From a virus (Duplodnaviria > Caudoviricetes), in the IMG/VR virus record IMGVR_UViG_3300035670_000237, positions 1 to 59,181 of that record: 59,181 nucleotides of DNA, one strand, 5' to 3'. The stretch's first letter is position 1. Each line of letters begins with the position of its first letter. The notes beneath the pieces are model-generated. The model was not told the DNA's origin and ran no database searches. It was given only the letters and a program-made list of their open reading frames with translations. A program made the translations under genes and the position numbers. Positions 1 through 59,181 of the stretch are shown piece by piece.

Positions 1-282
1 CGGGCGCTGGATTGAAGGCCGCCGCGCCAGCGAGGTGCGCGAGGTGGCTGCCGCCATCGTCAGCGACCTGCAGACAGCCTATGCGCCGGCCACCATCAAC
101 CGCAGCCTGGGCGCCTTGAAGAAGGCGCTGGCCGACGCCTGGCAGCGCGGACGCACGCCGGTGGACTACAGCGGCCTGGTCAAGCGACTGCCCGAGAACA
201 ACCAGCGCACCGTCTACCTGACCATGGAGCAGGTGCACCAGCTGGCCGAGTGCGCCAGCGAGCAGGTGCGCACCGCCATCTG
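1..282 (+). repeat. Terminal overlap with 58900-59181 (imperfect)
   Basis: 156-282 is identical to 59055-59181 (127 nt). 1-155 differs at about 15 positions, mostly synonymous. Confidence 0.9.
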
Positions 283-754
283 GGTGGCCATGCTGACCGG
301 CTGCCGTCGCGGCGAGGTGTGCAAGATCGAACGCGCCCACATCCACGGCGACGTGCTGCGCATACCGGCCGGCAACACCAAGACGCTGCGCTACCGCGAG
401 GTGCCCATCGTCCCTGCCCTGCGCCCGTGGCTGGAGCGGCTGCCGCTGGCCATCAACTTCGAGGGGGTGAAGTCAGGTTTCCGCCGCGCCCGCGAGAAAG
501 CCGGCATGCCCGAGGTGCACTTCCATGACCTGCGCCACTCATGTGCCACCGTGCTGCTGCAGCTGGGCGTGGAGTTGCACGTGGTGCGCGAGATCCTCGG
601 CCACACGTCGGTGAAAACCACCGAGCGCTACGCGCACGTGATGGTGGAACCCCAGCGCAAGGCGCTGGAAAAGCTCGGAACCCAGGCCGCGATTTACGCC
701 GCAGATTTACACCAGAAACAGAAACGGCCCCGGAGGGCCGCCGTAAGTCGTTGA
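2..754 (+). CDS. int: Tyrosine recombinase/integrase, C-terminal part (5' part at 58628-59181)
   Basis: TGCRRGE, HDLRHS, LGH and TERYAH catalytic motifs. The frame continues from the ORF at the window end. Confidence 0.95.
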   Translation, partial: GRWIEGRRASEVREVAAAIVSDLQTAYAPATINRSLGALKKALADAWQRGRTPVDYSGLVKRLPENNQRTVYLTMEQVHQLAECASEQVRTAIWVAMLTGCRRGEVCKIERAHIHGDVLRIPAGNTKTLRYREVPIVPALRPWLERLPLAINFEGVKSGFRRAREKAGMPEVHFHDLRHSCATVLLQLGVELHVVREILGHTSVKTTERYAHVMVEPQRKALEKLGTQAAIYAADLHQKQKRPRRAAVSR

Positions 755-13600: not shown

Positions 13601-15346
13601 TCCGTCGGCAAAGTTGGATGGCTGCAGCACAGCGGCATCCACCACGGCATAGCGAAACGGCACACGCTGACCATCGGCCATCACAGCCACGTCCTCGCGG
13701 CCCAGGGCGGATGGCTGCACGGGGGCGCCCGCATCTCCCACGGCGAACACCATTGGCGCACCCGTGTCCGGCGAGCGACTGGGGCCCAGGCGCATGTAGT
13801 CCGGATCAGCGGCAATCTGCTGCATCTGCGCCACCGACGCCGCGCGCGTTCGGTCTCGGTTCTGCAGGTTCTGGGCGGAGTCGTCCACCGATGGCGGGGC
13901 GCCACCGGTCGCCGGGGGTGTTGCAGGGGGCGGTACCGGCGCCGCGTTGGCCAGCGTGGCCGTTGGTGCAGCCGGTGACGCCGCGGGTGATGCCCCGGGC
14001 GGTGCGGGCGGTGGCGCGGACAGATCCGCATCCGAATCATCCTGCAGCCGCTGCAGCAGGCCATCGAGCTCGCTTTCCTCGGCGTCGGTAAGTGCGCGGG
14101 TCTGCGACAGCAGCATCAGCGTGTTGATGCGCTGCATGTCGTCTGGGCTGATGAATACGGCCGACAGGGGTGTGGCGGTTCCGGACGAAGCGGGCGGCGT
14201 TCCAGGGCCGGATCCCGGTGGCGTAATGGGCGGCGTTCCAGGAGTGGCCCCAGGAGCACCTGGAGCACCTGGAGCACCTGGAGCACCTGAGGCACCTGAG
14301 GCCTGCGCCGGACCACGCGGGCCCATCAGGCCGCCCTGCGTCGCCACATCGACGCCCCCGCCCAGGCCAAAGCCCAGCAAGCCGGCCACGGCCAGCTCCT
14401 TGGCGGCAGATGTGCCGCTCGGCACCTCGCCCGTGCCGACCGCTCGGCCGGTGATCTGGCCTGCCGTCTCGCCAATCTCCTGGGCTCCCTCACGCAGGCC
14501 TGCGCCCAGCGCCTGGCCCGTGCGCTGCACGATGCCCTGCGACGCCACCTGCTGGCCGGTAATGGCTCGCGTCAAGGCGCCCTCGGCACCGCCCCGCGTG
14601 ATGAGCCCAGCCACCACCGAAAACGGCACCGTGATGCCTGCGGCCACGTAGGCGCGATCCATCGGCGCGCCCTTGTCCAGCAGTTCGGCGAAAGTGTCCG
14701 CCGCGTTCTGTGCCGCCACCGTGCCGGTGCCAGCCCATTGCTGGGCACGCGCCACGCGGCTGGCCAGCTCAGCCCGGCCCAGTGCCTGCGCGCCCTGACC
14801 AACCGTGGCCAGACGACCGGCCGCCGCACCCACGCCAACCGGCAGGAACATGCTGCCGATGGTCGGCAGGAACTGGTCAGCGATGGCGCCCTTGTTGCGG
14901 CCCAAAGCCTGCAGCACGCCCACGGAGTCGTCCCGCATGTCGGCTTCGAAGTTGGTCCGCTGCGCTGCAGCACGGTCCGAGCCAACCACCTGGCGGATGG
15001 CTTTCATGCCCCGCTCCATGGCCCTGGAGGTATCGCCGCCCACGCGGTCGCCTGTGGCCAAACGCGCAATGTCGGCCACGCCCTTGACGGCGGTCGGGCC
15101 GATCTGCAGCACCCCAGCCGCCGCGTCCTGCGCAACGCTGCCAACGCTCAGTCCGGGAACGTCAACGCGCGGGTCCTGGTAGTCGTCAAACTGGTCAAAG
15201 AAGTTGCCTGCAGCGCCTTGCTGCATGACCTGGTCGCGCACTGCGGCCTGGGGTGCGGCAGCAGACGGCGAGGCTTCGGCTTGCGTGGTCGCGGCCACAC
15301 CCGAAGCGTCGTCGTCATCGTCAAAGCGGTCGAAGTAGTTGGCCAT
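1673..15346 (-). CDS. Giant polyvalent DarB-like virion/ejection protein (ParB-like, N6-adenine MTase, strawberry-notch SF2 helicase, zincin-like peptidase, BECR-like, LPD38-like C-terminus)
   Basis: 4557 aa ORF. QNRDR..ParB-like region (~13.4-13.9 kb); YSTP/EPTAG/NPPF MTase motifs (~10.0-10.7 kb); GDQTGIGKGR and DESH helicase motifs (~7.1-9.4 kb); HEVLGH (~5.68 kb); VDFVWG..GLSHII (~5.0 kb). Lies at the end of the virion operon. Confidence 0.88.
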   Translation of the reverse strand: MANYFDRFDDDDDASGVAATTQAEASPSAAAPQAAVRDQVMQQGAAGNFFDQFDDYQDPRVDVPGLSVGSVAQDAAAGVLQIGPTAVKGVADIARLATGDRVGGDTSRAMERGMKAIRQVVGSDRAAAQRTNFEADMRDDSVGVLQALGRNKGAIADQFLPTIGSMFLPVGVGAAAGRLATVGQGAQALGRAELASRVARAQQWAGTGTVAAQNAADTFAELLDKGAPMDRAYVAAGITVPFSVVAGLITRGGAEGALTRAITGQQVASQGIVQRTGQALGAGLREGAQEIGETAGQITGRAVGTGEVPSGTSAAKELAVAGLLGFGLGGGVDVATQGGLMGPRGPAQASGASGAPGAPGAPGAPGATPGTPPITPPGSGPGTPPASSGTATPLSAVFISPDDMQRINTLMLLSQTRALTDAEESELDGLLQRLQDDSDADLSAPPPAPPGASPAASPAAPTATLANAAPVPPPATPPATGGAPPSVDDSAQNLQNRDRTRAASVAQMQQIAADPDYMRLGPSRSPDTGAPMVFAVGDAGAPVQPSALGREDVAVMADGQRVPFRYAVVDAAVLQPSNFADGSANPAFAQQTPGTLIALNNGRTAGLREAWQRGTAERYKAELVADAQTHGVDPAAVAQLERPVLVRLYSERDNTANMAAKSQGQGMGLTAQELAAGDARLIDAGLLSLYRGGDMDAMANLDFARGFVGRLRGIGQDTATLMTADGMLSQDGRRRMEAALLANAYDRPDLVGELYESNDTDISAIGGALRQAAGSWALMRDMARSGVVEPGFDITADLMRAVEMVRTARRGRKGLLDMANQVDLETGRPADELTVEALRVLYGGQNLTRARGREKVASILDGYVNAALSAGTGMGLFDDAPTPLQALQSLNNAAEGAANVPNDLNVAGSQPGAPAAPAAPAAQPAQTGQEPAANGGELPGAGPAPGSDAAADGPAGQRPGAGSQRAGSDPQGADGTGAQGAGAAATGSGVDVSAPAAAQPSATTATDTYESRQADRLDRIRNAPSIEAAEGVLQEEYFDAERNFEGTSRLQREVRELIQRLDADRRRQRRQQLDRQRFDEGKWVEDSALTELYRQTLKRGTFESDLQNRKAFNIAVNAAFQANPDREYEVAREPGASWDMDRDVVRYRKKPAPAAPAPSAASTQQGAANGLRQEGQGGQEAPDAVNPPAGAPGQQPGAPADDAAAEAWWQSMTPAGKRAALSQVGAKSLPDRVLWNNMPKPVRTKLRGIIGTSSDPTVAEAISTPAPTPAPIPPAAEPVQAPAQAPAQAPAQAPAQAPAQAPAQAPAQAPAQAPAQAPAPTPPGSANTIFTEEAANAARERLRKKLGRLQSGIDPETMLDGITLAGYHIERGARRFAAYARAMVDDLGDAVKPYLVSWYLAVRNDPRAAGLKADMDRAADVEDADIDAALKAEESTPAPTPAPAPARPGAAASPSLGTAAGRQALAQAIADLFIGGDGFKTIVEARKVIAELTGQAVEPGSQAAKRADETVENAVVLAAREIVQAARAQGRADGVIYDRLVNLYGLQPTLGMRSSTSVREQAYSTPVPLAFLASRLAGVKPGDRVGEPTAGNTMLLLEVAPEDAVVNELNDERAANARALGFTVTQNNAATSDMAPAGTLDVELMNPPFGVVRDDDGQPIIWAAAPNYGTREIDHAIALRALQALKDDGRAVLIVGGVNATSDEALREGYRAKAKREFYFRLYQQYNVTDHFTLDGGLYARQGASYPVDVIVINGRGKATRAMPAAELPARYDSWAALKEKIDGNAANTAVAPANAANEPGASDGAVVPAVRAAGAVRGDGPGGRGADGVAVAVRPGGPDQRNDGARPGRSGDRQPGAVGNGVDGDRPAVPRGGQPVRAQPGAANGAEPGNEQLPQPIPGQGAGANDAANEGAARGDGGNRPAGVGGDGAGRNEPALNRPADRRGQEQETATQVAYAPASSVASVGTLVPRGMRDAVLASLARVQEAVGDIDTYVAGKLGYDTAELGRYFSAEQVDALALAIYNAESDAGFVIGDQTGIGKGRVVAAMIRYALRSGKVPVFITEKPNLYADMVRDLDDIGMADELGLQAQRSAILITNGSESIPYALRREVDGEAVELERTLRAPAQKEALAKLLDGMAASGNLGEYKVIFTTYSQTQTVAGKATARMRFLQRFADGGYVIFDESHNAGGTSTRQARSKEAREAEADGENKLGRAGFARELVRNSAGSFFSSATYAKRPDVMDLYSSTNMMLAVDRPIDLAPAIQEGGVPMQQIVATMLTEDGQYIRRERTFAGVGYDTRKTTVDKATAENMATAMRQILAFSRAKEAAVDSMKKAFDKEAAVVRSVGGEKTSVAGANFGAIMHNLIDQMLLALKVQNSVEYAIERLKAGEKVVLTVSNTMGSFLKDYAEDMGLRSGEPVALSFRDLYLRYLDKQRIVKIKRPGSQADEEYRLTDNDLGEVLVRQYQQTADFIGRAGFGAAPISPIDFMHDRLRAAGFSSDEITGRSMTVNYGGGTVPTLAGRNADIRQRLRAIRGFNNGDIDAIILNQSGSTGLSLHASDKVKDQRKRRMIIVQAEKNIDTHMQMLGRVHRTGQVVTPDYTQAMADIPAEMRPAAVLMNKMASLNANTTASRKSAVTAEGVVDFMNNYGGQVAAELLMDNPEIHAALGGNERLPVPDDVTKADDELIRKLTGYIPILPLEQQESVYADLVQRYTELIEREDAMGTNKLEARALDLGARTLSSEAITAPREGDNRAMTSRFAEPSYMEKVDVARTVKPMTRAEVAAAVAQTLGDKTASQLAAELIAGLNKRHAAFVADLRARREAAGADPMRTQREVETANLQKNLVEAMLRSHAVGDSVTVLDAQQVPTYGVITAISNTGATKNPSAGSSWKMTIALANGDARSLTLTASQIGRAFTVRDQSANISLPTDDGGSRTLAVQDLFDLYSAGNVRRERRWMVTGNLLAGFAKYPGQIVSYTRDDGSVAQGVLMRRGFDFDKAKKSGSSLSLGTPARVMEFLRRAGNGAVVVDGTGALRIVSSGGKFTLTTPASKREGGKLYLDKALTRALGQDFYKRGNLMSAVSVSEAALERAVEHLLTGRQDIKLMPGSNPDVAREVLGLGESKPGKPAFSRAGGARLMSSASVQSVVDAVVSRWAQRPSIVVVQSMQDPRVPEAVRDEDAAQREAGATGSPDGFFYDGVVYLVADGIASPRQAMEALFHEVLGHYGLRAVFGDALNGILDQIGLARPDLMRPKAAQYGKVLTLAASRERVNSLRRQAGMEPLSGAALESAAVALLRRERREVAEEILADMAKAQPELGFVKRAVAALRTWLRQNVPGLEGLRLTDAEIIRSYILPARGWVERGAMGANADGARTPAVALSRSATKSVTANIDRGLRALAEAVTGKTTVHRAMFRSGMGWVDFVWGDEGKVKSSGRTVGGRGLSHIIEARMRKDGLTEAEALRVLAEMVRAVASGAETKRVESNSSTSVKIEHDGYRVGLVKNPGSNAWIITAFEIDPDARPAGYAAAAPTQSAASLSRDGMGAGSLASDAVPPSLGGATRRDSTQRGSPAGAESPASMAEPGDDGNATPMFSRNSIGPTPPPQPGPVQRNRWHALKQRVMNLTSMEGWDALRYKLQDRFIDLKRVQERIQALGGTISDLNDAYLGEELFHKRLATRTEDFLANEFRPLLQDMKTRGVDLETLERFLHARHAPEANAAMAQRNPSRAELDALELQAEAELKAVRVLLQRAMAQGTATQALEQAVAQHQERLAGVRRMQPFPGTEDERLSLSGMSDAEAAAVMAALTPAQRSDLDALAAQVDGINAKTLESLERYGLVNRQTADAWRAQYQHYIPLHRDEAHPDSQSHPIGQGFNVRGSGVRERVGSNQRVTNILAHIAMQREAALTRGEKNLVLQRLYLLVGQNPLRDFWRIGSPPMRKYLDPVTGTVRREMDGTYRKDPNVVTLRIGGKDVSIIFDQRNPQAVRLATAVKSADIGELGWVTRTVSVGTRWFASVNTQYNPIFGIVNFMRDVGSAALNLSTTPLAGKERQVLAGVHHAMRAVYRQERGKGAANPVNARWVALWRDLEEVGGTTGFRDLFADIEDRAKALTKEVAALERGQVSRVAHAFVDWLSDYNESMENAVRVAAYKVALDEGMSRERAASLAKNLTVNFNRKGQKTRDINAWYAFFNAAVQGTARMVETLTGPAGRKIMAGGVALGAINTLVGMAVMGGFDDDDEDDDNWSKIPDFVKERSLIIPVSGKDYIALPLPLGFNFLPNIGRLSVEFALGGSDKTAGKQLGALMGVLLDAFNPLGGAQPPAQLVAPTVVDPVVALLDNKDWTGRPIYREDRSPLDPQPGTALTKDTASPVGKGLATAINAVTGGTKYQPGAWSPTPDQIDYVIGQLLGGVWRETSKLMTTVASPVTGDELPLYKVPLIGRLAGTTRGTAGQSDQFYENVKAINQVENELRGRARNQEDVDGFRRAEPLAALAGAADRYSRRVSELRQLRRDLATQKPEGYRDRMREVDEQIAETMRDLNSRVRVIQRQRVIRSEAVTQ
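9535..9999 (-). CDS. Putative overprinted gene (+1 frame) nested in the giant gene, 154 aa
   Basis: AAGGAG upstream of the ATG. Protein-like composition, while the main frame here is a G/A/R/D/N-rich linker. Confidence 0.55.
   Translation of the reverse strand: MATPQTPQSPQPTPPTNQAQAMVPWCPPFVQPGLCAVMVPAGEELTESRWRFALEDRINAMTARDPDGLEIANRALSAMGLMAIDQPYHAGGSLFGHNLELRTVLSLAMNSYRNPFPAKVPARMTPRMKGLLEEMEETDLLAWVEMALAEMSPR
11397..11516 (-). repeat. Coding tandem repeat, 10 x 12 nt (PAQA)n linker
   Basis: GCCTGGGCYGGT-type units on the plus strand, the last two slightly degenerate. Translates to APAQAPAQ in the giant protein. Confidence 0.95.
11791..11841 (-). CDS. Putative overprinted basic micropeptide MGYGKKGKGGKKPPMR
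   Basis: AAGGAG-7nt-ATG. Same +1 frame as the other nested ORFs. Confidence 0.3.
   Translation of the reverse strand: MGYGKKGKGGKKPPMR
12376..12651 (-). CDS. Putative overprinted gene (+1 frame) nested in the giant gene, 91 aa
   Basis: AAGGAG-7nt-ATG. Helical Q/L/R-rich product. The main frame is a low-complexity linker. Confidence 0.45.
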   Translation of the reverse strand: MSPMTSMSQDPNPALQRPQQPQQPSQPRQAKSLPRTVENFPAQALRLGQMQLQMGQLDNDLELVRNGQALIRRARTELARRAQVQQPPAAE

Positions 15347-24012: not shown

Positions 24013-24438
24013 TCACAGCCCCAGCTTGGCGCGCTCAGCACGACCCCAGGCGCGGCAAGCCTCCACGTGCGCGTTCCATGCGTCCGTCTCGTGCGACGGC
24101 GCGATGCGCAACATCTTGATCTCTTCGTCGACCGAGTAAACCTCGCGGATGCGCTGCACTACGCGCTCATCAATCAACTGCAGATGCGGGCTGCCTCGGC
24201 GAAGTTCGGCCTCGAGCTCAGGCGCCAGCGGAGTGGCCAGGGTCTCGATGCTTGCGGCGATTGGCGCAGGCTGCTCAGGCAGCGTCGCGCCGTCCGGGAG
24301 CGACACGACGGTGCGCCCGTCGGCAAGCGTCAGGAGCTCTTGGCCGACAGCCGCGCCGGGCTCGGAGGGCTCAGGCAGCCGAAGCTGGTACGTGGTGTAA
24401 GCGTCGGAAACCTTGCGGTAGGCGATCAAAGACGGCAT
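24013..24438 (-). CDS. Hypothetical protein (possible chaperone for the DGR target)
   Basis: 141 aa with GGAG SD. IREVYSVDEEI..WNAHVEACR tail resembles fibre-associated small proteins. Confidence 0.6.
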   Translation of the reverse strand: MPSLIAYRKVSDAYTTYQLRLPEPSEPGAAVGQELLTLADGRTVVSLPDGATLPEQPAPIAASIETLATPLAPELEAELRRGSPHLQLIDERVVQRIREVYSVDEEIKMLRIAPSHETDAWNAHVEACRAWGRAERAKLGL

Positions 24439-25390
24439 GGTGGTGCTCCTTCAAGTGGCGCAGGATGGGGCGCAGTGATGCGGTGCGGCAGGCGTGGCCG
24501 AGCCTGGAGACGAGGCTGGGCAGGCGATGCGCGCGCGCGTCGCGGCGGATCTGGCTGACCAAGTGCGGGCGCACGAACCGCGCCCGGGCCCAGGTGCGGT
24601 AGCCGCACCAGTTGACGCCGCGCCTGATCGGCTGCAGGCTGTGGTGGCTGATCTCCAGGTTCAGCAGTGCCAGATGCCGGCGGATGCCGTCCAGCCATTG
24701 CGCAGCCGTGGCCCGGTCGGGGGCGATCATCACGGCGTCGTCCACGTAGCGGGCGTATGCGGCGATCTTCAGCGTGCGCTTGGCGTACTGGTCCAGGCTG
24801 TTCAGGTACAGGTTGCTGAAGGTCTGGCTCAGCAGGTTGCCGATGGGCACGCCGGCCGCCTCGGGCCGGTGGGCAAACAGCATCGTCAGCTCCAGCGTGC
24901 GCGGGCACTTGACGATGCGCTCCAGCATGCCGCGCAGGATGTCGCGGTCGATGCTGTAGAAGTAGCGCCGCACGTCCACGTGCAGCGTCCAGGCGGTACG
25001 CGGCGCCCGGCGCATCTGGGCCTGCAGCCAGTCGGCCGCCTTGTGCGTGCCCAGGCCCTGCCGGCAGGCGAAGCTGGTGGCGATGTAGCGGCGCTCCAGC
25101 AGCGGCTGCAGCACGGCGTAGATGGCGTGCTGCACCACCAGATCCCTGAAGCTCGGCGCCTCGATCAGGCGGGGCTTGCGGCCGTCGCGCACCCAGAACC
25201 GGTGCAGCGGCGCGGGGCGGTAGGTGCCCGCCACCAACTCGGCGCGCAGCGTTGCAATGTGGGTGCCCAGGTTGCGGCCGAAGGCATGCACCGACCGGTG
25301 CGAGCGCTTGTTCTGGCGGGCGCGATGCCATGCCGCCAGCAGCGCCTCGGTGCTGACGATGTGATGGTACAGGTGCCCGGCGCGCTTCAT
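24371..25390 (-). CDS. brt: DGR reverse transcriptase
   Basis: FRDLVVQHA, GVPIGNLLSQ (DGR-type GxxxSQ), YVDD. ATG at 25390 (MKRAGHL). Confidence 0.95.
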   Translation of the reverse strand: MKRAGHLYHHIVSTEALLAAWHRARQNKRSHRSVHAFGRNLGTHIATLRAELVAGTYRPAPLHRFWVRDGRKPRLIEAPSFRDLVVQHAIYAVLQPLLERRYIATSFACRQGLGTHKAADWLQAQMRRAPRTAWTLHVDVRRYFYSIDRDILRGMLERIVKCPRTLELTMLFAHRPEAAGVPIGNLLSQTFSNLYLNSLDQYAKRTLKIAAYARYVDDAVMIAPDRATAAQWLDGIRRHLALLNLEISHHSLQPIRRGVNWCGYRTWARARFVRPHLVSQIRRDARAHRLPSLVSRLGHACRTASLRPILRHLKEHHHAVFDRLPQGFRRLHHVPASAA

Positions 25391-25563
25391 GCTGCGGCCC
25401 GGCCTGGGGGTGTAGGGGCCACGGCGCCGGTCTTCGCCCGCGGGCTGGCAACACGGCCGGCCTGGGCTACCAAAAGACGCTGCAGCAGAACATTTCGGCA
25501 CCAGCCGCGACGGTGGCTCCCTCGTTGCCGCACGGCACTTGCCGCATGGGGCGTACCTGGCAT

Positions 25564-25681
25564 CGAGTCGGCGGCGAACCCCACGTTGTTGTTGGAGTTC
25601 GTGCGGTTGTTGTTCAAGTTGCGGTTGCGAACCCCGGCATTCGAGCCGTTGTTCCAGTTCCCGCGCGAGATCACACAGAGC
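25564..25681 (-). ncRNA. DGR template repeat (TR)
   Basis: 118 nt, AAC-rich, intergenic between avd and RT. Aligns without gaps to 26234-26351. Confidence 0.95.
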
Positions 25682-25684
25682 ATG

Positions 25685-26170
25685 TCAAGCCACCACCGCA
25701 CCAAAGGCCCCGACAGTGTCGAGGCCCTCGGATTCAGGGCGCGCGGCCTCCTGCCCGCGCGCATTCTTGGGCGCGTCGCCGCGCAGTTCATGAGCCACCC
25801 AGCCGCCGATCATGCGGCCAAGCTCGTCGATCATCCGCGACAGCACCAGAAAGCGCCGCTCTCCCGGGGTCGTCGGGTCGGTCTTGCCGCCCGAGAAGTT
25901 GAACAACCCCAGCTCGTGCGCCAACACCGCCATCATGCGCAACTGCTCGTGCCGCACGTCCAGCTGGGTCAGCGCCGTCTTGCGATGGTGACGCTTCTGG
26001 CACTCGGTCACCAGGTTGTAGACGTCCAGATAGGCCTGCCGGATTTGCTGCGTCAAGGTGTACTTGTGGCAGTTCGGAAAGTGACGCAGATACCCCTCGA
26101 GCTGCACCGCGAGCAGCACCAGCTTGCGGTGCAGCGTCGCCTCAGCGTGCAGTCGGCTTCCGGTCGGCAT
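25685..26170 (-). CDS. avd: DGR accessory variability determinant Avd
   Basis: FP..HKYTLTQQIR...L..LDV..EQLR...ELGRMIGGW four-helix motif. AAGGAG SD. Between target and TR. Confidence 0.92.
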   Translation of the reverse strand: MPTGSRLHAEATLHRKLVLLAVQLEGYLRHFPNCHKYTLTQQIRQAYLDVYNLVTECQKRHHRKTALTQLDVRHEQLRMMAVLAHELGLFNFSGGKTDPTTPGERRFLVLSRMIDELGRMIGGWVAHELRGDAPKNARGQEAARPESEGLDTVGAFGAVVA

Positions 26171-26196
26171 GATGGAGGTCTCCTTCAATCGGTCCA

Positions 26197-26224: not shown

Positions 26225-27835
26225 TCACAAATACGAGGCGGCGGCGAACCCCACGGAGTAGCTGGCGTACGCGCGGGAGAAGTCCAAGGGGCGGAAGCGA
26301 ACCCCGGCACCCGAGCCGTAGGGCCAGCTCCCGCGCGAGACCACACAGAGCTCATTGCGCACGTACTGGTAGTAGTAGTCCTGGCCGAACAGGTTGGTGC
26401 CGCTGGTGCTGACGCCACCAGCCTCGGGCATGCCCAGCATGGCGCGGGCCCGGCTGGCGGCGTCGTCCATGTCAAACACGGCGTTGGCGCCGTTGCCGTA
26501 GCGCTGCGCGTAACCGTTGCTCGGGTAGGTTGTCGCAAACTCCAAATCTACAGCATCCATCAGCGCAGCCACGCCCGTGGCGCCCCAATGGTCAGTGGCG
26601 CCTGAGTTGCCGCCAGTCACCACGGCAATGTCCGCCGACTCTTTCAATGCGTACCACGTACCGACGGTGCAGTTGCCGCCGCTGGTGTAGGCGCCGAAGG
26701 CCGTGCTGTCCACGCCGTCCAGGCTGAAGGTGTCGGCATCGATGACAGTGACTTTGAAGAGCTTGCTGTTGAGCTGTGTCATGCCGCCCACGCTCTCGAT
26801 CATGGCCACCTGCCCCGTGGTGTAGCCGTGGCCCGCAATGGTGATGGCGCACGGGTTGGCCTGCGTCGCGCCCGTGATCGTCTTGGTTGCGGCAATGCAG
26901 GTCATGCCGATGTTGATCTTCCAGATGTTTCCGGCCACGTCGGTGATGCCGTTGGCCTGCCCGTTGTGCGTGGTCTTGGCAAACGGCACACCCGAGCCGG
27001 TGAGCGCGAAGTTGGCGTTGAACGCGGCGCCCGCCGTGGTGAACACCACGCTCGTGTCGCTGGTGTCGCGCAAGGCGTTGTTGTTGTTTCCGCGCGGCGC
27101 GCTCACGCCGCTGGCGACCCACCAGGCGCAGTTGGTGGCGTTGACTGCAGCCTGGGCGTGCGCCTCGCTGATGCGGGTCAGCGCATCAGCCATGAAGATG
27201 GACTCGGGAAAGAACCGCGATCCGCGCGACTTGGCTGCCGCGATGGCTCCGCCGTAGTTGTTGGCCGGCGTCTGACCATTGGCCGTGCACGCGGAGAACC
27301 CCGTCTGCCCCGTGCTGGGCCCGCTGACCACGGGCGCGGCCAGCGCGATGGAACTCGCCGTGCCGCTGTTGTTGGAGCAGTCGTACTTGTCGCGGAAGAA
27401 GCCCGCCTGGTTGACGCCGTTGTTCTTGAAAGCGCGGTGCAGGTAGTAGCCCTGGGCGTTGGCTGCGGCTTCGCTGGCGAAGAAGGTGAGCGGCTTGGTG
27501 TCGATGCTGTTGACGCCGAACGCCGCGTACGTCGGGTTGTCGACGTGCCCGATGCGCAGGTAGTACGCCGGGATCCACACCATGACGGATCCGTCCGAGA
27601 ACTGGTAGTTGCCGTACTGATCGGAATACGGGTTCTCGGTACCGGCCAGCTTGCTGAAGCCGCTGGGTACGCTGGGCGCAATGCCGACCCCGTAGCCGCG
27701 CAAGCCCGGCGTGCCGATGTGGTTGACCTGCGGCGCCAGCCGCGTCAGCTCCTCGTTGAGGTTGACGAAGTTGGCGTCGACCTCGGCATTGGTCAGTGGG
27801 GCGCCCTTGCCGGCGCGGGTCAGGATGTCGGCCAT
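26225..27835 (-). CDS. DGR target: receptor-binding protein with C-type-lectin/FGE-like fold
   Basis: MVWIPAYY, GITDVAGNIW and C-terminal VR. Inserted TITGATQANP..HG...GMTQLN domain. N-terminal anchor motif KGAPLTNAEVDANF. Confidence 0.9.
   Translation of the reverse strand: MADILTRAGKGAPLTNAEVDANFVNLNEELTRLAPQVNHIGTPGLRGYGVGIAPSVPSGFSKLAGTENPYSDQYGNYQFSDGSVMVWIPAYYLRIGHVDNPTYAAFGVNSIDTKPLTFFASEAAANAQGYYLHRAFKNNGVNQAGFFRDKYDCSNNSGTASSIALAAPVVSGPSTGQTGFSACTANGQTPANNYGGAIAAAKSRGSRFFPESIFMADALTRISEAHAQAAVNATNCAWWVASGVSAPRGNNNNALRDTSDTSVVFTTAGAAFNANFALTGSGVPFAKTTHNGQANGITDVAGNIWKINIGMTCIAATKTITGATQANPCAITIAGHGYTTGQVAMIESVGGMTQLNSKLFKVTVIDADTFSLDGVDSTAFGAYTSGGNCTVGTWYALKESADIAVVTGGNSGATDHWGATGVAALMDAVDLEFATTYPSNGYAQRYGNGANAVFDMDDAASRARAMLGMPEAGGVSTSGTNLFGQDYYYQYVRNELCVVSRGSWPYGSGAGVRFRPLDFSRAYASYSVGFAAASYL
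26234..26351 (-). repeat. DGR variable repeat (VR)
   Basis: 24 mismatches to TR, 23 of them at TR adenines. Encodes the C-terminal SRGSW...SVGFAAAS. Confidence 0.95.
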
Positions 27836-52480: not shown

Positions 52481-52777
52481 ATGAACACCCCCAAGACCCC
52501 CACGCGCATCTACCTCGTGCGCAACACCGACACCGGCGACGAGCGCCTGGTGCGCGCGCCCAACGTGGCCCGCGCGCTGGCGCACATCACCAGCACCAGC
52601 TACAGCTGCGAAGTGGCCACCCAGGATCAGCTGGTGGCGCTGCTGACCGCAGACACGCCAGCCGAGGTGGAGGATGCCCAGCGCAGCGCTGTGAGCGCCG
52701 ACAACGCCGCCAAGAACGATGCCGAGGAGGGCCCTTTGTACTGGCCGGAACGCAAGCCATGCGCCGCCAATTCCTGA
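52481..52777 (+). CDS. Hypothetical protein
   Basis: RIYLV...RLVRA....AL.H......EVATQD.LV motif. Confidence 0.6.
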   Translation: MNTPKTPTRIYLVRNTDTGDERLVRAPNVARALAHITSTSYSCEVATQDQLVALLTADTPAEVEDAQRSAVSADNAAKNDAEEGPLYWPERKPCAANS

Positions 52778-53268
52778 GCACCGACCCCGACGCCATGCAA
52801 CGCATCATCCAGCGCGCAACCGAAGAGGGCGACTGTCTTCTTTGGGACGGCGTGTACAACAACGGCAGCCCGCAGGTCTACATCGACGGCCGCTACCAGA
52901 TGGTGCGCCGCGTGCTGTGGCAACTCAGCCGCGGCGACATCCCCCAGGGCCTGCATCCGCGCTGCACCTGCGGCGAGCCGCGCTGCATCAGCCTGGATCA
53001 CATCCGGCTGCGCACCGTGCGCCAGATCGGCAGGGACGCCGCCAAGACAGGCGCCTGGAACAGCCTGCTGCGCCGCGTCAAGATCGCCGCCGCCCGCCGC
53101 AAGAACGGCAAGCTCACGCAGACCGACGTCGACCGCATCCGCGCCGCCGACAACGGCGCAGCCATCGCGCGCGAGCTGGGCATCAGCAAGAGCGCAGCCC
53201 AGAAGATTCGCACCGGCAAGGCCTGGGCGCCGCTGGGCTCGGCCTACCCGGGGTGGATGGGCTCATGA
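52759..53268 (+). CDS. Degenerate HNH-like protein with C-terminal HTH
   Basis: DCLLW.G, RRVLW, TCGEPRCI..DH, KLT..DV..IR...IARELGIS. Confidence 0.65.
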   Translation: MRRQFLSTDPDAMQRIIQRATEEGDCLLWDGVYNNGSPQVYIDGRYQMVRRVLWQLSRGDIPQGLHPRCTCGEPRCISLDHIRLRTVRQIGRDAAKTGAWNSLLRRVKIAAARRKNGKLTQTDVDRIRAADNGAAIARELGISKSAAQKIRTGKAWAPLGSAYPGWMGS

Positions 53269-53537
53269 AGGCCGCCGCCACCGGAGTGCACTGCCCGCAT
53301 TGCGAGCAGCCCACCCGCAGCCGCGTGCTGGAAAGCCGACCTCACGAGGGCAGCGTCTGGCGCCGCCGCCTGTGCCTGCGCTGCCAGCGCGTCTACGTCA
53401 GCGCCGAGCATGCCCCAGCGGGCCTGCGCATGCCGACGCTGACATCCAGCAGGCACCGCAGCCCGCCCACCCAGGCCCCCACGCCACCCGAAGCCCCTCG
53501 CGGCGACGGCGCGCACCTGGTGGGGCTGTGGCGCTGA
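53265..53537 (+). CDS. NrdR-N-like zinc-ribbon protein
   Basis: CPHC...SRVLESR....VWRRRLCLRC. Confidence 0.75.
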   Translation: MKAAATGVHCPHCEQPTRSRVLESRPHEGSVWRRRLCLRCQRVYVSAEHAPAGLRMPTLTSSRHRSPPTQAPTPPEAPRGDGAHLVGLWR

Positions 53538-53559
53538 AAGACTGAACGATGAGCTTTGC

Positions 53560-53667
53560 GGCTTGGCAGGGCGCGGCGGGGCCGGGCGTGGCCTGGCAAG
53601 GCGGGGCCAGGCAAGGGCTGTTTTCAGCGGGCAGCGCGTCATGGCGCGCTACCCAGTGGCAACACCC
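53560..53667 (+). ncRNA. GGC-NN pentamer array 1 (11 units, 53560-53614) plus 3' stem-loop; candidate guide RNA
   Basis: GGC+TT,AG,GC,GG,CG,GT,CT,AA,GG,CA,AA, then a GGGCTGTT...AACACCC hairpin. Confidence 0.75.
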
Positions 53668-53680
53668 ACATACCCATCAA

Positions 53681-53744
53681 GGCCGGGCGCCGCTGGGCTG
53701 GGCAGAGCTGGGCGTGGCAGAGCCAGGCAGGGGCGCCATGCGCA
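53681..53744 (+). ncRNA. GGC-NN pentamer array 2 (10 units, 53681-53730) plus conserved tail
   Basis: (G/C/A)GC+CG,GC,TG,TG,AG,TG,GT,AG,CA,AG, then GGGCGCCATGCGCA. Confidence 0.7.
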
Positions 53745-53796
53745 CAAGTCGTGCGACGCGGCATTCATCACCTCAACAACGTCAAGGAGTGACGAC

Positions 53797-54459
53797 ATGA
53801 GACGCTACGACATCACGATCACCGGCAGCACCCCGCTGCTGATGCACCCCGACAACATCGAGTGGGCCGACCGGCTCGAAGCCTGGAAGAACGACCCAGG
53901 CAACAAGCGCGAAAGTAAAGCCGGCGACGACCGATCACCCGCGTGGCGCTGGATCGGCAACCTCTACAGCGACGGCCGCCTGGTGGCCCTGCCCAGCGAC
54001 AACCTCATGCGCGCCTTCATGGAGGGCGGCGCCATGGTGCCGGTGCCGGGCGGCAAAAGCGGCAAGACCTTCAAGGCGCAGAGTCAGTCCGGGATGATGG
54101 TCGCAGAGCCCTACTGGCCCATTGACATCAAGGGCGCCAACGTCAAGATCAGCGACATCCAGCCCCTCATGGAAGTCAAAGACTTTGCGCTGCACAAGGC
54201 GCGCGCCACCGAACTCGGCTTCCGGTTGCACGTCAAGCGGGCCAAGATCGGTGCCAGCAAACACATCCGCGTGCGCCCGATGTTCGAAACCTGGTCCGCG
54301 CACGGCACCATCAACGTCTGGGACGAGCAGATCACCGACCGCGTGCTGGCCGACATCCTCAGCTACGCCGGCCAGTACAAGGGCCTGGGCGACTGGCGCC
54401 CCGGCGGCCGCACGCCGGGCAGCTTTGGCATGTTCACGGCGCAGATTCGCGAAGGGTAA
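53797..54459 (+). CDS. Stand-alone Cas7/RAMP-like protein (220 aa)
   Basis: AAGGAG SD. N-terminal ITITGSTPLLMH, LPSDNL, RVRPMF..W, C-terminal Gly-rich loop GLGDWRP..PGSFGMF. Confidence 0.75.
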   Translation: MRRYDITITGSTPLLMHPDNIEWADRLEAWKNDPGNKRESKAGDDRSPAWRWIGNLYSDGRLVALPSDNLMRAFMEGGAMVPVPGGKSGKTFKAQSQSGMMVAEPYWPIDIKGANVKISDIQPLMEVKDFALHKARATELGFRLHVKRAKIGASKHIRVRPMFETWSAHGTINVWDEQITDRVLADILSYAGQYKGLGDWRPGGRTPGSFGMFTAQIREG

Positions 54460-54464
54460 GTAGC

Positions 54465-54553
54465 GGCGCGGCCTGGCCTGGCAGGGCCTGGCGGGGCGAG
54501 GCAGGGCGGGGCGGGGCGGGGCGCGGCAGAGCCAGGCAGGGGCGCTATGCGCA
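54465..54553 (+). ncRNA. GGC-NN pentamer array 3 (15 units, 54465-54539) plus conserved tail
   Basis: GGC+GC,CT,CT,AG,CT,GG,GA,AG,GG,GG,GG,GC,AG,(AGC)CA,AG, then GGGCGCTATGCGCA. Confidence 0.75.
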
Positions 54554-54570
54554 TCAACTCGAAGCACGAC

Positions 54571-55077
54571 ATGAACACCACCAACACGCAGAACATTTTC
54601 CGCGGCATGCCCAGCGGACCCGATGTGCGCAAGCTGCTCGATGCATTCGGCGCGCTGCAACCCGGGCTGCAGATCACGCACGCTGAAATGGAGGACGCGC
54701 TGGTCACCGTCAGGTACGGCAGCCAGCGCTACAAGACCGTGGTTGCCGCGTGGCGCAAGACCTTGCTGGACAGGCACAACATCGACATCCAGTCAGTGCC
54801 CGGCATCGGCTATCGGGTTTTGAACGACGAAGAGCGCGTGGATGCCGGCCTGTCTGGCAGCAAGCGCGGGCTGCGCGAGATCGTGCGCTCGGCCAGACGC
54901 AGCGACCGCGTCATAACCGAAGACCCCGTGCTGGTGCACAAGCAGGCCGTGCAGCGGCGGCTGACGATGGCGATCAACGACGAATTCAAGCGCCAGACCA
55001 AGGCTTTGCTGGAGCTTCCGCCGCCCATGCAGCAGCAGCCTCGCATTCCCCAACCCACCTCGAAAGCCACCCCATGA
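54571..55077 (+). CDS. Winged-helix-like protein associated with the RAMP locus
   Basis: IQSVPGIGYRVL resembles the OmpR-type wing (I.TVRG.GY.L). Alternative ATG at 54547. Confidence 0.6.
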   Translation: MNTTNTQNIFRGMPSGPDVRKLLDAFGALQPGLQITHAEMEDALVTVRYGSQRYKTVVAAWRKTLLDRHNIDIQSVPGIGYRVLNDEERVDAGLSGSKRGLREIVRSARRSDRVITEDPVLVHKQAVQRRLTMAINDEFKRQTKALLELPPPMQQQPRIPQPTSKATP

Positions 55078-55435
55078 TCAGCGCCATACTTTCCGTCATC
55101 GCCATGATCGCGGCCATCGCCGCGATGATCGCTGCAATCATGGCCCACCTCGCTTGGCGCTCGGCCGCCGCCGAGGCGCGCTCGGCCGCCGCGGCCGCCG
55201 ACCTGGAGGCTTCCAAGCTCGAAGCGGCGATCTCGGTCATGCGGTCGGAGCGCGATTCGCGCCGCTCCTCGAGTTCCTGCGACATCCTCAGCAGCTCGGC
55301 TTCCACCCAGGTTGCAGCCTCCACCCAGGTGCGCGAGTCGTAAGGCTGGCCATGCAGCCCCCGCGCCATCTCCAGCTTCACGCCGGCCGCGCCGATGGCC
55401 CGGAAGTGCTCGAGCTGCGCCGGCGTCAGCGGCAT
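54986..55435 (-). CDS. Membrane-anchored coiled-coil protein, paralogue of 43835-44134
   Basis: IGAAGVK..MARG.HG...W.EAEL, coiled coil, C-terminal TM. Confidence 0.55.
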   Translation of the reverse strand: MPLTPAQLEHFRAIGAAGVKLEMARGLHGQPYDSRTWVEAATWVEAELLRMSQELEERRESRSDRMTEIAASSLEASRSAAAAAERASAAAERQARWAMIAAIIAAMAAIMAMTESMALIMGWLSRWVGECEAAAAWAAEAPAKPWSGA

Positions 55436-55489
55436 GGCCGATGCAATCTCAGCCCGCTGCACCGCCTGGCCGCCACCCTCCCGCGCGCC

Positions 55490-55804
55490 CTACGCCGCGT
55501 GCGCGTCGATGGGTTGCGCCACCAGCTTGACCCCCAGCGCCCGGCACACGCGGGCGATGGTGTCGAAACGCGGGCTGGAATCGGCGCGCAGCGCCTTGTA
55601 CAGCGCCTCGCGGCTCAGGCCCGCTGCCTGCGCCATCTGCGTCATGCCTCGGGCTCTGGCAATGTCACCCAGAGCCTGGGCCAGCAAGCCCGGGTTGTTC
55701 TCTTCCAACATGGCCAAAAGGTACTCGGCCACCGCCTCGTCGTCACCCAGGTACTCGGTGGGGTCGAACACCCGCAGATCTGTGATCTTGATCTTGTCGG
55801 TCAT
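55490..55804 (-). CDS. Addiction-module antidote protein (HigA/HI1420-like HTH), no cognate toxin
   Basis: FD..EYL.D.EAVAEYL...ALGDIARARGMTQ.A..AGLSREALYKAL....PRFDTI. Confidence 0.88.
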   Translation of the reverse strand: MTDKIKITDLRVFDPTEYLGDDEAVAEYLLAMLEENNPGLLAQALGDIARARGMTQMAQAAGLSREALYKALRADSSPRFDTIARVCRALGVKLVAQPIDAHAA

Positions 55805-55807
55805 GGC

Positions 55808-56224
55808 TCAAGCCACCCTCACCTCCAAGTGCCGGCCAAGCACCCGCGCCGCGGCTTCGATCTGGTCCAGCCGCGAGGCGTGGCGCAGGTCAAGGAGCCG
55901 ATCCACCTGCGGCATGTGCCAGCCCAGGCGCCGGGCGAGTTCAGCCTTCTTGACGCCTTGCTCGGTCATGGCTTGGTACACCCCCAGCTTCGCGCCTTCC
56001 AAGGCCGATGGGCGCACGGTGCGCTGCCCACGCTTGGCCTTGCTGGGTACGGGCAGCGGCTTGCGCGCCTCCACGTAGAACGACAGGGCCGTCTCCAGCG
56101 CATCGACAGCCTGCAGAAGCGCTTCGTCTTCATCGGCGCCGAAGGTCAGCGCCTCGGGCACGTCGGGGAAGGTCACCAGCACGGTGTTGCCGTCCGGGGT
56201 CAGGATCACGGGGTAGTCGAACAT
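55808..56224 (-). CDS. hicB: HicB antitoxin
   Basis: YPV.L......VTFPDVPEA.T.G..EAL..A.DAL plus C-terminal HTH. Confidence 0.92.
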   Translation of the reverse strand: MFDYPVILTPDGNTVLVTFPDVPEALTFGADEDEALLQAVDALETALSFYVEARKPLPVPSKAKRGQRTVRPSALEGAKLGVYQAMTEQGVKKAELARRLGWHMPQVDRLLDLRHASRLDQIEAAARVLGRHLEVRVA

Positions 56225-56233
56225 GGGGCGGCC

Positions 56234-56413
56234 TCACTTCAGTCCGAGTTGACGCTTGATCGCGGCTTCAAGCCCCTTGCCCAGTTCGGCGGTGCCGTGC
56301 ATGGGCAGCGTGGACTGCTTGCCGTTCAGGAAAACTTTCAGATGCGAGCCCTTGCCGGGCTGAAAAGTGGCGCCTTGCTGCTCCAGCCACTTCTTCATCT
56401 GCTTCGAGTTCAT
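56234..56413 (-). CDS. hicA: HicA toxin
   Basis: 59 aa. WL..QG....GKGSH......TLPMH..ELGKGL..AIKRQLGLK. Confidence 0.92.
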   Translation of the reverse strand: MNSKQMKKWLEQQGATFQPGKGSHLKVFLNGKQSTLPMHGTAELGKGLEAAIKRQLGLK

Positions 56414-56613
56414 GGGCTTAATGTTAAACACTTCTGTTGTACTCCGCAAGAGCAACGCAACACGGCTGTTGCCTCGCTGCGCCCACGTGTGGCACACTCC
56501 GCCCGTCCTCGCACATCGGGGATGCGGGCTTGGCAGCCCGGTGGAATCCGCGGCTCAAGGCCGCACCTCACCGCAGGATCGCGGCCTTTTTCGTGCCTGA
56601 GCACGCCTGTTTC

Positions 56614-58467: not shown

Positions 58468-58754
58468 ACGGACTGTTGACACCGGCAGAATTGGCCGCGC
58501 ACCTGCGCACCAGCGAGCGCACCGTCGCGCGCATGATCCTGGACGGCTGCCCGAGTATGCTCGTTGGCTCCCGCCGCAGGTTTGATCTGCAGGCCGTGTT
58601 GGACTGGACCAGAGAGCGCGCAGGATCATGCCCATCAGAAAAGACAACTCCGGGCGTTGGCACGCAGAGGCTTGCGTCGGCCGTCGCCGCCTACACCGAC
58701 GCTTACCGGCGGGCGCAAGTTCGGGTGATGCCAAGCTCCTCGAGGCAGAGCTGA
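58464..58754 (+). CDS. xis: Excisionase-like HTH protein
   Basis: LLTPAELA.HL..SERTV......G.P...VG..RRFD...V..W. Precedes and overlaps int. Confidence 0.8.
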   Translation: MNGLLTPAELAAHLRTSERTVARMILDGCPSMLVGSRRRFDLQAVLDWTRERAGSCPSEKTTPGVGTQRLASAVAAYTDAYRRAQVRVMPSSSRQS

Positions 58755-59181
58755 CGCGCGCGCTGCACGCTCAAGCCAAGACGCGGCAGCCCAACATCCC
58801 TGGCGACCCGCTGCTCAGCGAGCTGCTGGCCGACTACACCGAGCGCCACGCCGGCACCCTGCGCAGCCCCGAGACGGCGCGCCACCACGCTTACCGCATA
58901 GGCCGGTGGATTGAGGGCCGCAGAGCCAGCGAAGTGCGCGAGGTGGCTGCCGCCATCGTCAGCGATCTGCAGCCAGCGTATGCGCCGGCCACCATCAACC
59001 GCAGCCTGGGCGCACTGAAGAAGGCACTGGCCGATGCCTGGCAGCGCGGACGCGCGCCGGTGGACTACAGCGGCCTGGTCAAGCGACTGCCCGAGAACAA
59101 CCAGCGCACCGTCTACCTGACCATGGAGCAGGTGCACCAGCTGGCCGAGTGCGCCAGCGAGCAGGTGCGCACCGCCATCTG
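58628..59181 (+). CDS. int: Integrase, N-terminal part (continues at the window start; about 341 aa in total)
   Basis: ATG at 58628 (MPIRKDNSGRW). Open to the window end and in frame with 2-754. Confidence 0.9.
   Translation, partial: MPIRKDNSGRWHAEACVGRRRLHRRLPAGASSGDAKLLEAELTRALHAQAKTRQPNIPGDPLLSELLADYTERHAGTLRSPETARHHAYRIGRWIEGRRASEVREVAAAIVSDLQPAYAPATINRSLGALKKALADAWQRGRAPVDYSGLVKRLPENNQRTVYLTMEQVHQLAECASEQVRTAI

Follow-up and report, generated by a model that had tools for sequence, protein, structure and literature searches.

What kind of system is encoded where a small gene is surrounded by tracts in which GGC alternates, in strict 5-nt phase, with a freely varying dinucleotide (NN)? 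Such an arrangement lies at positions 53560-55077 (+ strand) of the virus record IMGVR_UViG_3300035670_000237, analysed here as a stretch of 59,181 bases (the window), where direct reading of the sequence gives three GGC/NN tracts around a gene of 220 amino acids. A first-pass annotation had taken the tracts for guide RNAs of a RAMP protein and had pointed, doubting its own novelty, to a preprint on a phage system called VIPR. That preprint exists and describes the same mechanism (bioRxiv 10.64898/2026.04.26.720920), and the doubt was justified, the system being already published. The reading adopted here, with a probability of roughly 0.9, is that 53560-55077 is a complete VIPR locus, composed of three genes for guide RNAs (vrRNAs), the gene vipr and a vap1-like gene, all on the + strand.

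VIPR, short for Viral Interference Programmable Repeat, is known from three preprints (bioRxiv 10.64898/2026.04.26.720920, 10.64898/2026.04.26.720927, 10.64898/2026.10.15.759431). According to these, VIPR systems are mostly viral or proviral and include a minimal RAMP protein, Vipr, and usually one accessory gene, vap. A vrRNA is a run of GGY/NN units, typically 9-16 and no fewer than 4, that leads into a structured tail of invariant form, and double-stranded DNA is bound with each NN pairing and one target base skipped per unit, the outcome being transcriptional repression of competing mobile elements. A published survey counts 664 VIPR loci (bioRxiv 10.64898/2026.04.26.720920). The VIPR features that can be addressed by computation, namely protein homology, fold, GGY-reading residues, arrays, tails, vap and viral context, were all found in this locus. 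The class is already published and the locus adds nothing categorically new to it; modest additions are two classes of tail, two guides in the putative leaders of vipr and vap, and a candidate class of target.

The elements of the locus are the following.

53560-53614, + strand: vrRNA1 repeat tract, 11 units, all GGC plus NN; NN = TT AG GC GG CG GT CT AA GG CA AA
53615-53666, + strand: 3' tail of vrRNA1, long class; GGG, hairpin 1 (GCUG-UUUU-CAGC), hairpin 2 enclosed by GGG and CCC, then GUG-GCAA-CAC
53681-53730, + strand: vrRNA2 repeat tract, 10 units, 7 with GGC and 3 degenerate (CGC, AGC, AGC); NN = CG GC TG TG AG TG GT AG CA AG
53731-53744, + strand: short tail of vrRNA2; GGG, hairpin GCGC-CAU-GCGC and A, 52 nt before the vipr start
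53784-53789, + strand: ribosome-binding site of vipr, AAGGAG
53797-54459, + strand: vipr, 220 amino acids, minimal Cas7-like RAMP protein
54465-54539, + strand: vrRNA3 repeat tract, 15 units, 14 with GGC and 1 with AGC; NN = GC CT CT AG CT GG GA AG GG GG GG GC AG CA AG
54540-54553, + strand: short tail of vrRNA3; GGG, hairpin GCGC-UAU-GCGC and A, 17 nt before the likely vap start
54571-55077, + strand: vap1-like gene, 168 amino acids; an alternative ATG further upstream, at 54547, falls within the tail hairpin

Vipr protein

The product of vipr, the gene between arrays 2 and 3, carries the strings ITGSTPLLMH and GLGDWRP..GSFGMF, in which the first-pass annotation had rightly seen the hallmarks of a RAMP protein. 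The sole sequence match in the PDB was chain 36pp_D, 'SUSP1 Vipr protein' (phmmer, E 3.2e-10), and a profile built from 79 homologues recovered the same chain with an E-value of 1.1e-16, the next match having 0.38. Direct comparison of the window Vipr with SUSP1 Vipr by BLASTP gave E 2e-19, and phrog_4652 is matched by both proteins (3.5e-20 for the window Vipr and 1.4e-96 for that of SUSP1). A tblastn search of 50,697 phage records with Vipr matched 125 records, all with less than 60% identity, among them phiSUSP1 and SUSP2, whose identity of 26.5% extends over 99% of the query (E 7e-12). The Vipr family comprises 2258 clusters (90% identity) at E <= 1e-3 among 2565 candidates, as well as 931 representatives (50% identity) at the same threshold; the 120 clusters listed lack both a Pfam domain and an informative name. 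Against Pfam, Vipr gave only a sub-threshold match to HdcB.

The residues that read the GGY handle in SUSP1 Vipr are H17, R138, D177, W178 and R179, which are named as reading G1, G2 and Y3 in the work on the structure solved by cryo-electron microscopy (bioRxiv 10.64898/2026.04.26.720927). In the pairwise alignment these correspond to H17, R160, D199, W200 and R201 of the window Vipr, and among the 79 homologues R160 is invariant and H17, D199 and R201 are conserved in at least 90%. The residues of SUSP1 Vipr that contact DNA are partly retained: R39 aligns with R38 and K88 with K90 of the window Vipr, and K33 and K82 have no aligned lysines.

The structural check proposed at first pass gave a confident AlphaFold2 model of Vipr (predicted local distance difference test score, pLDDT, 96.9; predicted template modelling score, pTM, 0.90) with PDB matches of the Cas7/Csm3 kind. 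Foldseek returned 31 PDB matches at E <= 1e-3, with best template modelling (TM) scores of 0.44-0.50, from a library that ends on 8 April 2026 and does not include the Vipr entry 36pp. Almost all of the rows listed are backbone subunits of CRISPR type III (Csm/Cmr), VII and IV complexes, and one is a Cas6-type CRISPR RNA endoribonuclease. The glycine-rich loop GLGDWRPGG is conserved, and a beta-hairpin at residues 143-163 bears the invariant R160, which is aligned with the SUSP1 thumb residue R138. As modelled, Vipr is a minimal RAMP fold, consisting of a single RRM core, a glycine-rich loop and a thumb.

Repeat arrays

The three phased tracts first noted from the sequence alone are borne out by the sequence reading and by a shuffle test. 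In a strict scan of both strands of the window, the longest phased GGY+NN runs have 11 and 13 units, and elsewhere runs have at most 4 units; in 200 dinucleotide-preserving shuffles the longest run was 3 units in 80, 4 in 108, 5 in 11 and 6 in 1. Tandem Repeats Finder also gives rows with a period of 5, 10 or 15 at the positions of the tracts. Each of the three tracts ends in the letters GCCAGGCA(A/G)GGG, and its last two units (CA and the one ending in A or G), common to all three arrays, may belong to the constant part of the RNA. No Rfam family was matched in 52500-56000 at E <= 1.

The arrangement recurs in 29 related loci, found in 4 bacterial or metagenome-assembled genomes (MAGs) and 25 viral contigs, with 49-72% Vipr identity. 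Flanking pentamer arrays with different NN, proposed earlier as a check on homologues, were found in 28 of the 29 loci, on the vipr strand and directly upstream and/or downstream of the gene; the exception, L029, begins inside vipr. These loci hold 88 arrays of at least 8 units with 58 distinct NN strings, the GGY being kept and the NN varying. The vipr-proximal array of 10 units (NN = TA TT GC AA AG AC AT TC GC AA, with two degenerate units) is identical in 13 loci (L005-L016 and L023; for example, L005:2913-2962), and the distal arrays differ, which suggests a conserved target or a cis role for the proximal one. In more distant relatives (L026:3859-4599, L027:4136-4333 and L028:2709-2951), long runs of arrays of 5-9 units are separated by a short conserved element (GGGGTCCRATGACCA or GGAAC...) and resemble the 'staggered' or multi-guide arrays of the published account (bioRxiv 10.64898/2026.04.26.720920).

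The locus is carried by four public DNA runs of one study, and no array differences were found among their contigs. The assemblies of the DNA runs tend to break at array 3. Over array 1 and its tail (53568-53634), the summed contig depth in run X1 is about ten-fold that of the flanks (226 vs ~20). In this region of runs X1 and X3, loose contig ends read as other GGC-NN arrays, so the same metagenomes hold several related vrRNA arrays.

Structured tails and the leaders of vipr and vap

Two classes of tail follow the arrays, a long one with multiple hairpins (guide 1) and a short one with a single hairpin (guides 2 and 3). For the long tail, RNAalifold predicted 15 pairs from 17 homologous tails, 11 of them with compensatory changes, and the alignment read by eye suggested a further GGUG-GNAA-CACC hairpin at the end of this tail in the closer relatives. 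Folding of the three vrRNAs as single sequences was informative for the vrRNA1 tail only. The short tail consists of GGG, one hairpin of 3-4 bp and A, and its stem varies in paired fashion among loci (CGC/GCG, UGC/GCA, GCC/GGC and CCC/GGG).

Most of the short-tail copies listed are followed, within a few tens of bases, by a ribosome-binding site and the start of vipr or vap; after two copies in L021, another array stands in place of the ribosome-binding site and start. The order array, GGG, hairpin, ribosome-binding site and ATG recurs before vipr, and also before vap, in many related loci. It is conceivable, and rather doubtful, that vrRNA2 and vrRNA3 double as cis-acting leaders in the 5' untranslated regions of vipr and vap. 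In such a role, Vipr filaments forming on the leader of their own mRNA would adjust the translation or stability of vipr and vap, a dosage feedback that would match the protein supply to the 10-15 protomers needed per guide. A leader role for short-tail guides is not described in the accessible portions of the three VIPR preprints.

Accessory gene

The first-pass annotation had called the RAMP-like gene 'solo', which does not hold, as a conserved vap1-like partner is located directly downstream (54547/54571-55077) and had been missed. The comparison of starts among relatives favours the ATG at 54571 over that at 54547. The vap-like open reading frame (ORF) weakly matches phrog_5926 (1.3e-4), the family to which the SUSP1 gene directly downstream of vipr belongs (1.1e-75). 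A vipr-vap1 segment of 1,114 bp is mentioned in the third preprint (bioRxiv 10.64898/2026.10.15.759431), and because of this wording the SUSP1 phrog_5926 gene is taken here to be vap1. The window protein and this SUSP1 neighbour gave E 0.002 in pairwise BLASTP, and a profile of 13 homologues aligned with the SUSP1 protein in hhalign with a probability of 86% (E 5e-6, 119 columns). A vap homologue adjoins vipr in 28 of the 29 related loci, directly downstream in 26 and upstream in L024; the frame in L025 is unclear, and L023 is cut. The locus is likely a type II VIPR, because its accessory gene is vap1-like.

The vap model (pLDDT 88.7) has an N-terminal helix-strand-helix-helix-hairpin domain followed by two long helices. 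No Pfam match was obtained for vap, and Foldseek matched nothing to its model at E <= 1e-3; the highest-ranked rows, weak ones with E 0.05-0.3, come mostly from DNA-binding domains of the winged-helix kind. These rows hint that the modelled N-terminal domain may be winged-helix-like, and they agree with the published description of type II vap proteins as looking like DNA binders (bioRxiv 10.64898/2026.04.26.720920).

Predicted target of vrRNA2

The NN strings had also been proposed as queries for a target search. This succeeded in part, with a pile-up of vrRNA2 matches on AAA_24 genes and nothing convincing for vrRNA1 and vrRNA3. In these searches each GGY was replaced by one wildcard base (1-nt skip) and both strands were covered, following the published rule (bioRxiv 10.64898/2026.04.26.720920). 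Units 1-8 of vrRNA2 (16 specified bases) have at least 120 exact matches in viral contigs, as against 7 for vrRNA3 units 1-8 and 8 for vrRNA1 units 3-10, which are patterns of equal size. About 107 of the 120 vrRNA2 matches listed, counted from the flanking peptides, share one coding site, which reads on the opposite strand ...EM[IVL]..(W/A)LT[H/Q]LQHAR[G..][KR]N/H V... and at which the dinucleotides of the guide cover the first two positions of each codon and the wobble position is skipped. At least 18/20 is reached by 33 of the 120 matches listed, of which 32 are at 18/20 (with the Trp codon) and one is an unrelated low-complexity site at 19/20. The gene that carries the site belongs to Pfam AAA_24 (E 7.9e-43) and phrog_124, 'Sak4-like ssDNA annealing protein'. 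In G003, the one target contig whose neighbourhood was annotated, it is followed by genes for a helicase, a Cas4-domain exonuclease and a primase/helicase in an operon of the same direction.

In each of five whole target contigs, three of which are proviruses by IMG/VR class, vrRNA2 scores 18/20, a value reached by none of 100 permuted guides; vrRNA1 and vrRNA3 stay within the permuted controls on the same contigs. Among 75 unique coding sequences of AAA_24 homologues, taken from the best 80 of 464 relatives and gathered by peptide patterns rather than by the guide pattern (although one of the six peptides used for retrieval, HGREMIGW, is adjacent to the guide site), 72 score at least 16/20, with 56 at 17/20 and 6 at 18/20. 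A further collection comprised 401 genomes from the order of the Rubrivivax MAG that carries a related VIPR, an order which we take to be Burkholderiales. There the vrRNA2 pattern has 16 matches in 13 genomes, versus 2 for the backwards control, and the 12 loci kept include 7 at the AAA_24 site, 2 in a GntR/FCD regulator, 2 in an unannotated frame (19/20) and 1 other. The 19/20 match (L188:1351-1578 and L189:1446-2459, both bacterial) lies in a frame coding ...CLTHLHHAR... without a Pfam family, and may be due to chance or represent a second target class.

The target-bearing contigs are GC-rich phages and prophages unrelated to the window phage; no protein is shared at E <= 1e-10 between the window and the five target contigs. 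No AAA_24 homologue was detected in the window phage (best tblastn E 0.33), which uses RecT. From this sequence evidence, vrRNA2 probably targets the (W)LT[H/Q]LQHAR codons in the Sak4-like AAA_24 gene of other phages. If so, vrRNA2 would silence the replication operon of rival phages or prophages of the same host range and thereby cripple their replication. No self-target was found on the contig, where the best scores of the three guides in order (15/22, 15/20 and 19/30) lie within those of permuted guides, and the absence of self-targets is likewise reported for the published VIPR systems (bioRxiv 10.64898/2026.04.26.720920).

Several observations weigh against this target, and most of them also speak for the foremost rival, a genuine VIPR locus whose vrRNA2-AAA_24 match is coincidental and whose true targets lie outside the collections searched. 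The guide is short, with 10 units, of which 16 bases match exactly and at most 18/20 are matched in the AAA_24 family. Its last unit never matches the AAA_24 site, and 3 of its 10 units lack GGY, changes of which abolished silencing in SUSP1 (bioRxiv 10.64898/2026.04.26.720920). By estimate, 18/20 would be reached by chance about 100 times in such a collection, so that the case for the target rests on the pile-up in one gene family; the matches there are homologous copies of one site, which are not independent and count as one event, and a random pattern is estimated to give a pile-up of this kind with a probability of a few percent. The guide site is not outstanding in conservation, ranking 70 of 214 among eight-codon windows in the gene. 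Furthermore, vrRNA1, vrRNA3 and 57 guides from relatives show no convergence on the phages matched by vrRNA2 (of 58 guides compared with the 120 target pieces listed, only vrRNA2 matches), and matches of 16-20/20 also occur in the unrelated host genes named above.

Against a coincidence stand the excess of at least 120 matches over 7 and 8 for the equal-sized patterns, the 16 matches as opposed to 2 in the 401 genomes and the failure of all 100 permuted guides on the target contigs. To these are added the position of the skipped bases on wobble positions, as in the published natural targets (bioRxiv 10.64898/2026.04.26.720920), the similar GC content of the target-bearing contigs and the absence of an AAA_24 gene from the window phage. 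A coincidental match is thus an appreciable possibility and the less probable one, and the AAA_24 gene is retained here as the predicted target of vrRNA2.

The remaining patterns gave little. No exact 1-nt-skip matches were found in viral contigs for vrRNA1 units 1-9, vrRNA3 units 1-12 or the whole of vrRNA2 (units 1-10), and the matches there of vrRNA3 units 1-8 (best 22/30) and vrRNA1 units 3-10 (best 19/22) are at chance level. In metagenome contigs, vrRNA1 units 1-9 have 6 matches, in line with chance, with 0-1/4 bases matched in the remaining two units and a locus GC of 0.47-0.64. Allowing up to 3 mismatches, the full vrRNA3 pattern is found in 0 of 251 genomes and the full vrRNA1 pattern in 0 of the 5 target contigs. 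The guides of the window and its relatives, searched against the window and the 29 loci, show no excess with the 1-nt skip (5 matches vs 12 for skip-0 and 18 for skip-2). Altogether, vrRNA1 and vrRNA3 have no convincing target in the viral contigs, metagenome contigs and genomes searched.

Transcription and integrity of the locus

Some points count against the reading of 53560-55077 as a complete VIPR locus. Among the public runs listed, no RNA run carries the locus that would document vrRNA expression, no sigma-70-like promoter was found in 53100-55400, and the identity with SUSP1 Vipr, of only 26%, limits the classification. A + strand terminator was also not found in 53100-55400. As neither promoter nor terminator was found there, the arrays would probably be co-transcribed with the rightward early operon, at the end of which they are located, and then processed.

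A decaying or inactive VIPR remnant, in which the arrays persist and function is lost, would account for the CGC or AGC in 3 of 10 units of array 2, for the G-rich, low-information array 3 with its three consecutive GG dinucleotides, and for the lack of a target for arrays 1 and 3. This alternative is very unlikely in view of the intact vipr and vap, with GGY-reading residues kept, the perfect 11 units of array 1 with an intact covarying tail, and the identity of the locus in the contigs of four runs. Degeneracy inside vrRNAs is moreover frequent in published systems (bioRxiv 10.64898/2026.04.26.720920), and among the relatives the vipr-proximal array has 2 degenerate units and is nonetheless the same in 13 loci. 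A third reading takes the tracts for simple repeats of an ordinary G+C-rich kind, or for Gly/Arg/Ala-rich coding sequence, without RNA function; the 67.6% G+C of the window and a 298-amino-acid ORF (53563-54459) readable through arrays 1 and 2 into the vipr frame might point to it. As far as computation allows, the comparative data refute it. No reading frame can keep a 5-nt period, the phased GGY and its free NN reappear in 28 of 29 loci that have only vipr in common, each array is followed by covarying hairpins, no shuffle gave more than 6 units, and the conserved 220-amino-acid protein is preceded by a ribosome-binding site and ATG.

Comparison with known systems and proposed mechanism

As in the type II systems of Escherichia phage SUSP1 and the Pseudomonas fulva prophage, the VIPR locus of the window has a homologous Vipr that keeps the residues reading GGY, arrays that are 10-15 units long, share the strand of vipr and each lead into a conserved structured tail, and a vap1-like gene directly downstream; it is likewise phage-borne, has no self-target and has its predicted target in another mobile element, with the skipped bases on wobble positions. 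Compared with the annotated SUSP1 Vipr, the window Vipr is 25 amino acids longer (220 vs 195) and has insertions near residues 80-90 and 131-143 as well as in the G-loop. The order of the guides also differs, with two upstream of vipr and one between vipr and vap in the window, whereas in SUSP1 a single guide precedes the two genes and three follow them. In the tails, a multi-hairpin structure and a single hairpin before the ribosome-binding site contrast with the pseudoknot tail described for SUSP1. Guide 2 is predicted to act on a Sak4-like replication gene carried by unrelated phages, whereas the published targets are a satellite recombinase and a lysis-lysogeny regulator.

With the Cas7 family of class 1 CRISPR-Cas (Csm3/Cmr4 of type III and Cas7 of type VII), Vipr shares the RAMP/RRM fold, the glycine-rich loop and the thumb hairpin, and both polymerise along a guide RNA at a fixed period (bioRxiv 10.64898/2026.04.26.720920, 10.64898/2026.04.26.720927). 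The period is 5 nt with 2 informative bases in VIPR and 6 nt with 5 in CRISPR. Vipr has no detectable sequence similarity to the CRISPR Cas7 proteins, the SUSP1 Vipr chain being the only one found in the PDB by sequence. The absence of CRISPR repeats and cas genes remarked on at first pass was upheld: Tandem Repeats Finder gave no tandem repeat with a period above 24 in the window, and hence no CRISPR repeat-spacer array, and a general PHROGs scan of 45 ORFs, which is not exhaustive, gave no cas family. The locus is not a CRISPR-Cas system; the fold alone is shared.

The proposal that one subunit binds per pentamer, with GGC as the protein handle and the NN pairs together spelling a non-contiguous target for use against competing phages, matches the published VIPR mechanism and is supported by homology with the systems characterised. 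By this homology with SUSP1 and P. fulva, one Vipr protomer would bind per GGYNN unit of the vrRNA, with the GGY flipped out and held by two neighbouring protomers and the NN pairs presented for pairing. The target would then be read as xNN with the formation of an R-loop triplex, and transcription would be blocked without cleavage, the latter because the locus contains no nuclease gene.

VIPR was discovered very recently (2026); it is a phage-borne CRISPR relative that reads DNA through a gapped code. The locus described here provides a well-annotated VIPR from a GC-rich environmental temperate phage, distant (26% identity) from the two systems studied. If the prediction for vrRNA2 is true, VIPR as a weapon of phage against phage would extend from satellites and lysogeny switches to replication modules.

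Phage context and neighbouring genes

The record is a virus record with genes for an integrase, portal, capsid, terminase and RecT. The PHROGs scan of the 45 ORFs assigned integrase pieces at both ends, an excisionase-like gene, a HicAB pair and repressors, as well as RecT, a MazG-like protein, a polynucleotide kinase, terminase, portal, major head and tail genes. The VIPR locus is on the contig of a temperate phage, GC-rich and environmental, at the end of a rightward early operon (~50.7-55.1 kb).

The two integrase pieces, at 35-754 (+) and 58628-59179 (+, with an open end), match overlapping parts of phrog_1 (positions 215-455 and 117-292), and the contig has no terminal direct repeat; it may be a cut provirus or have two integrase genes. 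Upstream of the VIPR locus, a small ORF at 53244-53537 (+) encodes an NrdR-like zinc ribbon (PF22811, 1.7e-8) and ends 23 nt before vrRNA1; it was considered as a part of VIPR and rejected, being absent beside vipr in the 29 related loci. The VIPR locus is followed directly, at 55490-56497 (-), by a repressor-like gene (phrog_4268), a HicB-like antitoxin gene (55808-56224) and a HicA-like toxin gene (56234-56497).

Elsewhere in the window, an ORF of 4557 amino acids at 1673-15346 (-) matches phrog_14770 along its C-terminal part, is similar to DarB-like antirestriction proteins at residues 1106-1428 and includes 12-nt tandem repeats at 11391-11516. Additionally, 24371-26188 (-) together with 26225-27835 (-) holds parts of a diversity-generating retroelement, with a reverse transcriptase (phrog_1423, 1.4e-93) and Avd (phrog_3206), and an adjoining tail-protein-like gene could be its variable target.

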